Shown here one piece after another: positions 38,959-42,030 of a stretch of 64,000 bases of DNA. Every line of letters begins with the position of its first letter. Position 1 is the first letter of the stretch. Source of the DNA: Methanothrix sp. (GTDB lineage: Archaea > Halobacteriota > Methanosarcinia > Methanotrichales > Methanotrichaceae); contig JBAXWY010000002.1 of NCBI GenBank assembly GCA_037128175.1, positions 1-64,000 of the forward strand, given 5' to 3'. The notes below the pieces were generated by a model. It was not told the DNA's origin and did no database searches. It saw only the letters and a program-made list of their open reading frames with translations. Both the position numbers and the translations under genes were made by a program.

Positions 38959-39501
38959 TCAGAGTAAGCCCTGCGCCCTCAGCTCTTCCTTGGCCAGCTC
39001 CTGATGCTTCTTCTCCAAAAAGCTATAGACATTTCCATGCGGAGCCCCATCAAGCAGCATCTCTATGGCGGTACGTGCAACTCGCATTTGCTCCGCATAG
39101 CCTAATATGGCGACCGTCTTGCCATACACAGATACCTTGGCGCCGGAGAGCCTCTCCATGATCTCACGCGACCGTCCGTCCTTGCCGATGATGCGGCCCT
39201 TGATGCGTTCCATATCGTTCTTGGTGCCTGCCATCTTGGACAGGTCCAGCACATCGAGCATCAGCATCTCGTCATCAAGAAGGGCCAGAGCCCTCTCCGG
39301 TGAGAAGCCTCTGCCGATGGCTTTTACCAGGTCTAATACTCTAAGGCCCTGCAATGGGTCTTCTGCCGATGCAATAGAGATCGCACCGGTCTCGCTGTCT
39401 ATCTCAATAGTGGTCTTGGTCTTCTCTTCGATAAAGCGCTTCATGGACCCGCCAGGTCCCACCAGCACACCTACGCGCTCTTCTGGAATCTTGATATCCA
39501 A
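38959..39501 (-). CDS. KH-domain ribosome-biogenesis protein (Dim2/Pno1)
   Basis: IP.ER.GVL.G, AIGRGF.PE.A, GRIIG.DG, G.PH..VY. Confidence 0.92.
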   Translation of the reverse strand: MDIKIPEERVGVLVGPGGSMKRFIEEKTKTTIEIDSETGAISIASAEDPLQGLRVLDLVKAIGRGFSPERALALLDDEMLMLDVLDLSKMAGTKNDMERIKGRIIGKDGRSREIMERLSGAKVSVYGKTVAILGYAEQMRVARTAIEMLLDGAPHGNVYSFLEKKHQELAKEELRAQGLL

Positions 39502-39506
39502 TTTAA

Positions 39507-40313
39507 TCAGCCTTCTTTTTTGTCGATCTCTTCAATCTCTTCTTTGTCTTTGCGAAGCCTTGCCCAGATCTCTTCTGGGGAGCCCACGTTATATTTTTTC
39601 TTAAAGTAATGGGCCACGTTGGCTATATCGCGCTCCAGAAATCTTCTGGCCATGGGATGGTCCAGCGTAACAGACTGCCCCATATCTATTATCACCGGAT
39701 CGCCTTCGTCATAAAGTATATTGAACTCGCTCAGATCGGCATGAACGAGCTTCCCACGGTTATAGAGCACCGAGATATATTCGACGATTTTTTCAAAAAT
39801 GCGCTTAGCGTCCTCAGTCTCCAGTTCCACGTCTCTTAGCGGAGGAGCAACATTCTCGCCTTTGCCGATAAGATCCATAACCAGTATGTTCTCCCTCATG
39901 GCTATGGGATGGGGCACGGCTACACCCACCTCTTCCGCTCGCGTCAGGTTCCGAAATTCCTTCCGGGTCCAGGCCGCGACAATAGCTCTCTTTGTGCCCT
40001 TCACGTTTCCAAATCGTGGATCGCCATGCAAGTAGTCCTGCATGGAATTGAAATTGCTGGTAGAGATGCGGTAAATCTTTAGGGCAAGCTGTTTTTCACC
40101 CACGATGGCCTTAAAAATGTTGGCTTCTTTGCCGGTGCAGACGGACCCGCCCAGAGCATCGATTACGCCCTTGCTGGCCAAGCTGTAAAGGTCCATCAGG
40201 GTGCGCTTATCGAAGACAGCATCCTGGACGTTTAGATCATCGGAGTCCTTTATCCTGGTACGAAGAACATCGATCTTGGTATCGAAATCTTCATCCTTGG
40301 TACGCCGGCTCAT
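39507..40313 (-). CDS. rio1: RIO1 serine/threonine kinase
   Basis: TGKEANIF, A.KIY, KEFRNL, LVHADLSEFNIL, IIDMGQ. Confidence 0.95.
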   Translation of the reverse strand: MSRRTKDEDFDTKIDVLRTRIKDSDDLNVQDAVFDKRTLMDLYSLASKGVIDALGGSVCTGKEANIFKAIVGEKQLALKIYRISTSNFNSMQDYLHGDPRFGNVKGTKRAIVAAWTRKEFRNLTRAEEVGVAVPHPIAMRENILVMDLIGKGENVAPPLRDVELETEDAKRIFEKIVEYISVLYNRGKLVHADLSEFNILYDEGDPVIIDMGQSVTLDHPMARRFLERDIANVAHYFKKKYNVGSPEEIWARLRKDKEEIEEIDKKEG

Positions 40314-40338
40314 AAAGTGCCTTTCAAGAAGATTCCTT

Positions 40339-40662
40339 TCAAGAAGTTCCTTTCAGAAATCCCTTGCGCTGCAGCCAGTCCACCTGGGGGCCTGTGTATC
40401 TCCAGACTACATCGGCCTTCTCATTCTGGATTTCCCAGGGAATGACAATAACCACATCACCCTGTCTAATCCAGATCCTCTTCTTCATCTTGCCAGGTAT
40501 GCGCCCCATCCTGGTGATGCCGTCGATGCATCTCACCTTTATGCGATTGGCTCCAAGTAAGCTTTCCACATGACCGAATATTTCTCGATCCTGTTTGCGG
40601 GGGAGACGGACTCTGGTAATTACAGCTCCTTCTTCTTCCCTGCCACGACCTCTATTATACAG
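40339..40662 (-). CDS. eif1a: Translation initiation factor aIF-1A (probable CTG start)
   Basis: RVRLP...LLGAN...C.DG..R..RIPGKM.KRIWIR.GDVV...PW...KAD..WRY; frame open to CTG 40662 after GAGGTGA. Confidence 0.93.
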
Positions 40663-40810
40663 CTTATCACCTCAAATAATAATTATGGACACGAGACTCA
40701 TGGAATCTTCGGGGCCGCTCTTGCCCCGAGTAGCCAAAGTATCTTTCTTTTCGCCCTTCGGCTAAAAACCACTCTTAAATAGTTAAAGCTTGTGTCGGCC
40801 AAAATGCAAA

Positions 40811-40884
40811 TGGGCCCGACGCGATTCGAACGCGTGATCCCCGCCGTGTGAAGGCGATGTCATAACCAGCTAGACCACAGGCCC
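40811..40884 (-). tRNA. tRNA-Val(CAC)
   Basis: gggcctg...cgggccca acceptor stem, TTCGAA T-loop, anticodon loop tt-cac-ac. Confidence 0.93.
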
Positions 40885-40999
40885 TCGAAGTAAGCCTAGT
40901 AAGTCATCAGCTATTTGTATCTTGCCCTTGGGAAGAGAACGGCAAAACTCATGCGCCTAGGAATTATTTAAATACTAATTCGCGAAGCTAATAAAACGA

Positions 41000-41785
41000 A
41001 TGAGTTTCATTTTGCGAAACCCAGCCTACACCTTTTATGAGCGGCTTTTAAAGTCACGCATTCTTGCCGGAGAGCCGGTGGAGCATGTGGCCATAATTCA
41101 GGATGGAAACCGCAGATATGCCCTGCAAAAAGGCCTCTCCAGGTTCCTGGGGCACAGCCTTGGTGCCGACACCTCGGAGAAGGTCTCCGATTGGTGCCTG
41201 GAGGTAGGTGTTAAGCATCTTACCCTCTATGCCTTTTCCACAGAGAACTTTGATAGGGACGAGTTGGAGAAGCGCTATCTCTTTGATCTGATCAAAAACA
41301 AGTTTGGGGAGCTTTGTCGCTCCAAAAAAATTCATGCCAACAGGGTTCGCGTAAGGGCCATCGGCAGGGTGGAGATGCTGCCCCTGGACCTTCAGGAGGA
41401 GATCTGCCGCACTGAGGATGCCACGCGAGAATATGAGACGATGTACCTGAACGTAGCCCTGGCCTACGGCGGCCAACGCGAGCTGGTAGACGCAGCGCGA
41501 TTCCTGGCGCGCCAGATAAGAGAGGGAAAGATCAGGGCAGAAGATGTGGACGAGGATCTGATCGCAACGCACCTCTATCCGCAGGACGGCATTTCTGTGC
41601 CCAAAGTGGATCTGATCATCAGGACGGGCGGGGACAGCCGCACCTCCAACTTCTTGCCCTGGCAGGCCAACGGCAATGAGTGTGCCGCATACTTTTGTGC
41701 GCCCTACTGGCCCGAGTTTCGGAAGATCGACTTTCTGCGCGCCATTCGCACTGCCCAGACCAGGGGGCCGGGCCAACAAGCTTAA
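41000..41785 (+). CDS. uppS: cis-prenyltransferase (undecaprenyl/polyprenyl diphosphate synthase)
   Basis: HVAIIQDGNRRYA, YAFSTENF, ALAYGG, DLIIRTGG..RTSNFL.WQ. Confidence 0.95.
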   Translation: MSFILRNPAYTFYERLLKSRILAGEPVEHVAIIQDGNRRYALQKGLSRFLGHSLGADTSEKVSDWCLEVGVKHLTLYAFSTENFDRDELEKRYLFDLIKNKFGELCRSKKIHANRVRVRAIGRVEMLPLDLQEEICRTEDATREYETMYLNVALAYGGQRELVDAARFLARQIREGKIRAEDVDEDLIATHLYPQDGISVPKVDLIIRTGGDSRTSNFLPWQANGNECAAYFCAPYWPEFRKIDFLRAIRTAQTRGPGQQA

Positions 41786-41815
41786 TAACTAAAAGCATGC
41801 CATGAGGGATGTTTT

Positions 41816-41903
41816 GTCCCGATGGGGTAGTGGACATCCCGAAGGCCTGCGGAGCCAAAAGCGCAGAGAGCCTTCAACCCGGGTTCGAATCCCGGTCGGG
41901 ACG
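41816..41903 (+). tRNA. tRNA-Arg(GCG) with ~16-nt intron at the canonical 37/38 site (about 41853-41868)
   Basis: gtcccga/tcgggac acceptor stem, aaggc-ctgcgg^a-gcctt anticodon arm once the insert is removed, GTTCGAATC. Confidence 0.88.
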
Positions 41904-42030
41904 TTGATTTACAGGCAATGGATCACGGTTTTATCGTATAGATCGCATTGGCAATGAAGATAGGTAGATAGGCCCAAGGCCAGCCTCCTCTCGACCTCAT
42001 TTCTTGGTCGCGATGCAATCGCTTTTGAGA

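Follow-up and report, generated by a model that had tools for sequence, protein, structure and literature searches.

The window analysed here, a 64,000-nt stretch of a Methanothrix sp. contig, carries on its minus strand a gene whose product is identified from its sequence as the translation initiation factor aIF1A (eIF-1A), an essential initiation factor. A tRNA-Val gene lies upstream of it, and rio1 and a gene for a KH-domain protein follow downstream on the same strand (Table 1). Read from the CTG codon discussed below, the product scores 141 bits against the TIGR00523 profile, above the curated cut-off of 102.9, and covers profile positions 7-97 of 98. The domain PF01176 is matched by residues 27-88 with 80.5 bits (cut-off 30.2). 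By sequence similarity, residues 15-103 can be aligned with the aIF1A of M. jannaschii, for which a structure is available (1JT8; E = 4.5e-38), and the aIF1A of P. abyssi present in 30S complexes (5JB3) is matched with E = 1.6e-26. Residues 2-14 (40620-40659, minus strand) form an Arg/Gly-rich tail followed by an acidic run; the N-terminal tails of aIF1A in other families are Lys/Arg-rich and vary in length.

Some further features of the region were recorded. A tandem copy of cttcttgaaagg at 40319-40350 (minus strand) covers the aIF1A stop codon and the gap of 25 nt up to the ATG of rio1, which is not preceded by a clear Shine-Dalgarno sequence (SD). On the opposite strand, ARAGORN called a tRNA-Arg(GCG) of 90 nt at 41815-41904 (plus strand), a length which could accommodate an intron or an extended arm. 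A search of positions 40300-41000 against Rfam matched only the tRNA.

Table 1. Features of the aIF1A locus, given in window coordinates
Feature	Position	Strand	Remarks
KH-domain protein gene (PNO1/Dim2-like)	38959..39501	-	PF00013 and PF22891
RIO-type kinase gene (rio1)	39507..40313	-	PF01163, E = 1.3e-59; 25 nt 3' of the aIF1A stop
aIF1A (eIF-1A) CDS	40342..40662	-	107 codons counted from CTG; stop TGA 40341-40339
GTG chosen by ORF and gene finders	40567..40569	-	would give a truncated product of 76 aa
CTG, proposed aIF1A start codon	40660..40662	-	sole in-frame NTG between TGA 40674-40672 and GTG 40569
Shine-Dalgarno sequence GAGGTGAT	40666..40673	-	3 nt 5' of CTG; invariant in the genus
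In-frame TGA	40672..40674	-	overlaps the SD and closes the upstream frame; in 22/22 genus loci
In-frame mini-ORF of 9 codons (ATG 40701 to TGA 40672)	40672..40701	-	not conserved
GC-rich hairpin of 7 bp	40709..40729	-	UCGGGGC / GCCCCGA, loop of 7 nt; in MFE and centroid folds
TATA-like element ctttaactatttaag	40774..40788	-	between tRNA-Val and aIF1A; putative promoter
tRNA-Val(CAC)	40811..40884	-	directly 5' of aIF1A; syntenic in genus loci long enough to include it

Start site and leader of the aIF1A gene

Read along the minus strand, the region comprises an ATG (40701-40699), the TGA (40674-40672), the triplets GGT GAT AAG, the CTG (40662-40660), 30 further codons and the GTG at 40569. Neither an ATG nor a GTG or TTG occurs in frame between this TGA and GTG 40569 in the minus-strand sequence and its translation, in agreement with the preliminary description, which had called CTG 40662 the only plausible start after the in-frame TGA. 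That description had also placed the CTG 4 nt after GAGGTGA; this motif was confirmed at 40673-40667, and the CTG follows the full 8-nt match GAGGTGAT after 3 nt. The latter is complementary to GGATCACCTCC, located at the 16S rRNA 3' end in another genome of the same genus (G020), which served as reference because a 16S rRNA gene and its 3' end are absent from the 98-contig assembly of the genome studied here (G000). With a 16S-complementary SD at working distance, the aIF1A message has the properties expected of a leadered mRNA. Upstream of GTG 40569, the local sequence contains no SD.

Comparison within the genus was based on 22 full-length loci; one further locus, L023, is frameshifted and stands outside this set. 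The block of TGA, SD and CTG is found in 22/22 of these loci as tTGAGGTGATAAGCTG, one of them with ACG instead of AAG. At the codon level, the 17 loci with the full 107 codons were compared. Of the 14 nt preceding the CTG, only one site varies, and substitutions of a codon-like pattern start directly after the CTG, with 7, 4 and 25 variable sites at the first, second and third position of codons 2-31. In the segment ahead of the called GTG, codons 15-31 contain 15 variable columns, 14 of them purely synonymous, a pattern pointing to constraint at the protein level. Since the variation upstream of GTG 40569 is codon-like, this region appears to be translated, and coding seems to begin at or just after the SD. 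The proposal that a conserved N-terminus extends upstream of the called GTG is thus supported both by these synonymous changes and by the alignment with 1JT8, which begins at residue 15. Taken together, it is very likely from the comparative data that translation of aIF1A starts at CUG 40662.

Four RNA libraries, each from a different study, yielded contigs that span positions 40660-40674 without a differing letter. Their identity to the DNA at the CTG argues weakly against RNA editing, as such contigs may include DNA and give neither a 5' end nor strand or expression level. Upstream of the CTG they reach to 40885 (X1), 40858 (X2) and 40741 (X5); transcript 5' ends cannot be mapped from contigs, and the contig ends at 40672, 40684, 40741 and 40858 are no evidence for a start site.

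Every element of the leader listed in the preliminary description was located at the position it had assigned. The TATA-like tatttaag (40781-40774) lies within an element about 112 nt upstream of the CTG, whose core tttaactatt is present in 22/22 genus loci. The octamer itself is unchanged in 21/22 of them and reads tattcaag in L022. Counted from 18 nt past the TATA core, the leader would be about 48 to 144 nt long in the genus.

The 7-bp hairpin was likewise present at 40709-40729, but it is missing in 4/22 genus loci (L004, L011, L015 and L022) and receives no support from covariation: 82.4% of the cells were paired compared to 81.3% in shuffled alignments, and 171 of 500 shuffles scored as high. 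Folding of the 123-nt leader was ordinary (z = -0.77, with 46 of 200 shuffled sequences folding at least as well), and the RNAalifold consensus of 13 leaders was weak (-4.5 kcal/mol). On these grounds the hairpin was ruled out as a conserved regulatory part, and the "structured leader" suggested earlier does not belong to what is conserved. The mini-ORF beginning at ATG 40701 was rejected as a conserved element as well, since many genus loci lack its ATG or have it in another frame, and is judged to be incidental. Because neither the hairpin nor the folding energy nor the mini-ORF is supported, the conserved unit consists of the SD, a fixed spacer and the CTG rather than of a structured leader.

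An AT-rich segment, ttattattt, located just upstream of the SD (40663-40683, minus strand) is nearly invariant in the genus. RNAalifold placed it in a weak AU/GU stem in which UUAUUAU pairs with GUGAUAA across the SD. All columns of this pairing are invariant and carry no covariation signal; if formed, the stem could partly mask the SD.

Start codons of aIF1A across Halobacteriota

The survey of aIF1A start sites covered the phylum Halobacteriota. Of the 161 genomes drawn from the class, 158 contained the gene, as did all 201 drawn from the phylum, and 191 loci (30 + 80 + 60 + 21) were compared. For each locus, the start was taken as the in-frame ATG, GTG, TTG or CTG between the upstream stop codon and the conserved core whose 15 upstream nucleotides paired best with GAUCACCUCC. 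This duplex-energy method over NTG codons replaced an earlier classifier, which relied on the longest exact SD substring, admitted further near-cognate codons and proved noisy with degenerate SDs. It mis-assigns L034, which has ATA at the position, L229, for which a spurious GTG far upstream is selected, as well as L260 and L265. Set aside were the frameshifted L023 and thirteen loci from seven families (f12, f20, f22, f23, f24, f28 and f31), which have GC-rich upstream regions devoid of an SD and start with ATG or GTG; most of these are probably haloarchaeal.

Among the remaining 177 loci from 25 families, the SD-linked start codon is CTG in 156 and TTG in 19, with a single ATG (L272) and a single ATA at the exact start position (L034); the genomes are related and not independent samples, so that the CTG counts overstate the number of independent retentions. 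CTG starts were seen in 24 of the 25 families, the assignment in f30 (L159) being weak. Of the 156 CTG loci, 101 lack any in-frame ATG, GTG or TTG ahead of the core, and a stop codon directly precedes the CTG in seven. With respect to spacing, 114 of the 156 have the first G of the SD "GG" 9 nt upstream of the CTG; the median SD duplex amounts to -9.7 kcal/mol. In families beyond the genus, SD and CTG at fixed spacing are the only common feature upstream of the core. Four loci (L039, L041, L050 and L051) carry an ATG that abuts the SD and immediately precedes the CTG, so that their true start is ambiguous. Because of these four loci and the 19 with TTG, CUG cannot be regarded as obligatory.

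A set of 80 named contigs, mostly from Methanothrix and in addition from Methanocrinis, Methanosarcina, Methanoperedenaceae and Methanocellaceae, overlaps with the survey genomes and was not pooled with them. Here, 77 of 80 loci scored CTG in frame; the other three comprise SD and CTG in L229, SD and CTG followed by a 1-nt frame break in L211, and ATA in L214. The ATA of L034, in the same place as that of L214 from an uncultured Methanotrichaceae contig, sits behind AGAGGTGGT at the exact position of the CTG and would represent a second kind of near-cognate start for aIF1A. Paralogous aIF1A genes in single genomes were encountered in family f3 (L089/L090, L092/L093, L095/L096, L097/L098 and L106/L107). 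In several of these two-copy genomes, one paralogue has an SD-linked CTG and the other a TTG at the same position. One copy may be more tightly start-codon-limited, or regulated, than the other in such genomes, which belong to some of the Methanosarcinaceae.

Two controls address the identity of the codon. An internal column occupied by leucine in 177/177 loci (column 97) shows the full range of synonymous codons, namely CTG (61), CTT (53), CTC (37), TTG (13), TTA (7) and CTA (6). At the start position, CTC, CTT, CTA and TTA never occur in the 177 loci. Synonymous codons would be expected if the CTG merely encoded leucine; the restriction to CTG or TTG among the leucine codons points to a start codon.

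The second control was a screen of the genome for an exact 6-mer of GGAGGTGA separated by a spacer of 2-7 nt from the start of an ORF of at least 80 codons, preceded by a stop within 40 codons but by no canonical start; it detects strong-SD sites only. In these sites, ATG was found 104 times, TTG 35 times and CTG 18 times, compared to 3-21 times for non-start codons. ATG is thus enriched after the SD motif genome-wide, and the count for CTG falls inside the non-start range. TTG is also clearly enriched after strong SDs in this genome, and GTG (8) is no commoner there than background codons. In eleven of the CTG sites, the 15 codons that follow are also free of canonical ones, and among these sites that of aIF1A alone translates into a protein-like sequence. 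The aIF1A gene is therefore the only convincing strong-SD CTG start found in this genome. The gene for aIF1 (SUI1) starts with a normal ATG.

The preliminary description had suggested that the start codons of related methanogens be surveyed and had named ATG in the orthologues, or CTG starts common throughout the genome, as observations that would speak against its proposal. Most orthologues turned out to have CTG rather than ATG, and CTG starts are infrequent in this genome as far as the strong-SD screen reaches. A non-canonical start appears to be conserved among the orthologues of aIF1A as in infC-type genes, and a strong SD in front of a weak start codon looks ancestral to most of the Halobacteriota. 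By the same comparison, loss of the CUG arrangement seems confined to lineages without an SD, which are probably haloarchaeal; in others the codon seems to have been softened to UUG.

Possible coupling to start-codon stringency and alternative readings

A single substitution would convert CUG to UUG, AUG or GUG; its retention in 24 families makes selection for CUG itself likely. Coupling of aIF1A synthesis to the stringency of start-codon selection, either as feedback or as cross-regulation through aIF1, is the best candidate for this selection and a plausible one. In the mechanism we propose, the 8-nt SD GAGGUGAU, fixed 3 nt upstream of the CUG, would pair with the 3' end of the 16S rRNA and hold the 30S subunit in such a way that the CUG occupies the P site. 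The initiator Met-tRNAi would presumably read CUG with a mismatch at the first position. Initiation at CUG would be inefficient and would hinge on the strictness of the pre-initiation complex towards near-cognate codons, by which the output of aIF1A would be tied to start-codon stringency. When aIF1A is abundant, together with aIF1, whose ribosome binding it may support, CUG would be rejected more often and less aIF1A would be made; when it is scarce, CUG would be accepted. A CUG start with stringency-coupled output, in which the start is predicted from sequence comparison and the feedback is conjectural, appears to us the best explanation, and our confidence in it is evenly balanced.

One line of evidence on initiation factors speaks against self-control by aIF1A. 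In Sulfolobus, according to the available portion of PMC4705826, the non-AUG codon AUU is rejected by aIF1 in a complex also containing aIF1A, and the discrimination is credited to aIF1. Any loop may therefore run through aIF1, aIF1A may not control its own CUG, and a loop by way of aIF1A by itself finds no support. More tentatively, the CUG start might be an ancient device of stringency feedback or cross-regulation acting through occupancy of the 30S subunit by aIF1 and aIF1A, which would be ancestral to the SD-using Halobacteriota (class II methanogens, ANME-2, Methanoperedens and relatives) and lost where leaderless initiation took over.

The main rival of coupling to stringency is a fixed low-output setting. 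Here, CUG would be the true start as well; behind its strong SD, the weak codon would act as a throttle that keeps aIF1A output low and constant compared to that of rio1 and the KH gene downstream, and factor levels would not be sensed. We consider this a serious possibility, albeit the less likely of the two. All evidence for the CUG start applies to it equally, aIF1 rather than aIF1A is the discriminator documented in the available text of PMC4705826, and the repeated shifts to TTG (19/177) suggest that the exact codon can be tuned. However, a lower output can be attained in many ways, for instance by a weaker SD, whereas a specific near-cognate codon, only one substitution away from TTG, ATG or GTG, has been kept behind a strong SD in 24/25 families. 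Furthermore, the pattern is restricted to aIF1A in this genome as far as strong-SD sites are concerned.

It is very unlikely that the real start lies elsewhere, either at the called GTG 40569, which would yield a protein of 76 aa, or at a near-cognate ATT or ATA in the N-terminal region. In favour of the GTG, gene finders select GTG 40569, and 76-aa versions of aIF1A occur in public collections (P0036, P0037, P0039, P0043 and P0080), with JGI-type calls consisting of 76-aa truncations or long extensions. The NCBI proteins P0098, P0015 and P0018 have their first M exactly on the CTG of L026, L038 and L044. Prodigal-type callers shorten aIF1A to 76 aa or over-extend it, and NCBI records use the CTG silently. 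Four loci of family f1, genus g12 (L049, L055, L056 and L058) have a frame that is open upstream of the CTG back through the tRNA-Val gene. This open frame explains over-long public calls such as P0025 (123 aa). Against a start at GTG 40569 stands the loss of residues that align with a solved aIF1A from residue 15 onwards and of residues 27-31 of the Pfam domain match. In addition, codons 15-31 are constrained at the protein level, GTG 40569 lacks an SD, and SD and CTG at fixed spacing remain the only upstream feature shared by other families.

A still less probable reading has aIF1A made by readthrough of TGA 40674, or by termination and reinitiation after translation of the mini-ORF. ATG 40701 and the TGA do share the reading frame of aIF1A, with 9 nt between the TGA and the CTG. 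In other loci of the genus, such as L004, L009, L011, L015 and L019-L022, the ATG is absent or out of frame, however, and in other families the upstream stop codons differ or none is nearby. Finally, a sequencing or assembly error or a pseudogene is effectively refuted, in spite of the frame breaks in metagenome-assembled L023 and L211, by the presence of the same CTG in 156 assemblies and in the contigs of four RNA libraries and by an intact gene scoring above the family cut-off. The two loci L023 and L211 each show a single frame break in the N-terminal region of aIF1A and retain SD and CTG; both breaks are likely to be assembly errors.

Comparison with known systems

In the available portions of two reviews, AUG, GUG and UUG are the only start codons given for archaea (PMC7531240, PMC4705826). 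For M. mazei, 5% of the new small ORFs detected by Ribo-seq were predicted to start at CTG, and the term "initiation factor" does not occur in the main text of that study as far as it was accessible (PMC11456600). No description of a CUG start for archaeal aIF1A was found in the literature searched. We know of no archaeal initiation factor whose own start site serves in its regulation. An essential initiation factor that keeps CUG over most of a phylum would provide a testable handle on the control of start-codon stringency in archaea; reporters are feasible in Methanosarcina, and the Ribo-seq data for M. mazei are already public.

With respect to the SD, a close counterpart is the natural strong SD of aEF1A in P. 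abyssi, given in the available part of PMC6237735 as GGAGGUGAU-UUAA-AUG. The two leaders have nearly the same SD sequence and spacing; they differ in the start codon, which is AUG in aEF1A and CUG in aIF1A.

In bacteria, infC, the gene for IF3, has an AUU start codon and is autoregulated, the fidelity machinery repressing initiation at its own weak codon. The aIF1A gene resembles infC in being an initiation-factor gene whose non-canonical start is kept over a large clade behind an SD, and the logic proposed for it is the same. Unlike infC, it is archaeal and known in this respect from sequence alone, its start is CUG instead of AUU, and its product is a homologue of IF1/eIF1A and not of IF3. 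We know of no indication that aIF1A discriminates start codons in archaea.

Eukaryotic eIF1 is reportedly autoregulated through the poor context of its AUG, as Ivanov et al. are said to have described in 2010. It shares with the proposal for aIF1A that the expression of a factor involved in start-site selection would depend on the stringency of this selection. The means are different: eIF1 has an AUG in poor Kozak context that is reached by scanning, whereas the start of aIF1A would be a near-cognate codon placed by SD pairing, and the archaeal homologue of eIF1 itself, aIF1, begins at ATG in this genome. If the reading as an ancient device were true, aIF1A would join infC and eIF1 as a third and independent example of a start-site selection machinery that controls itself by a deliberately poor start.
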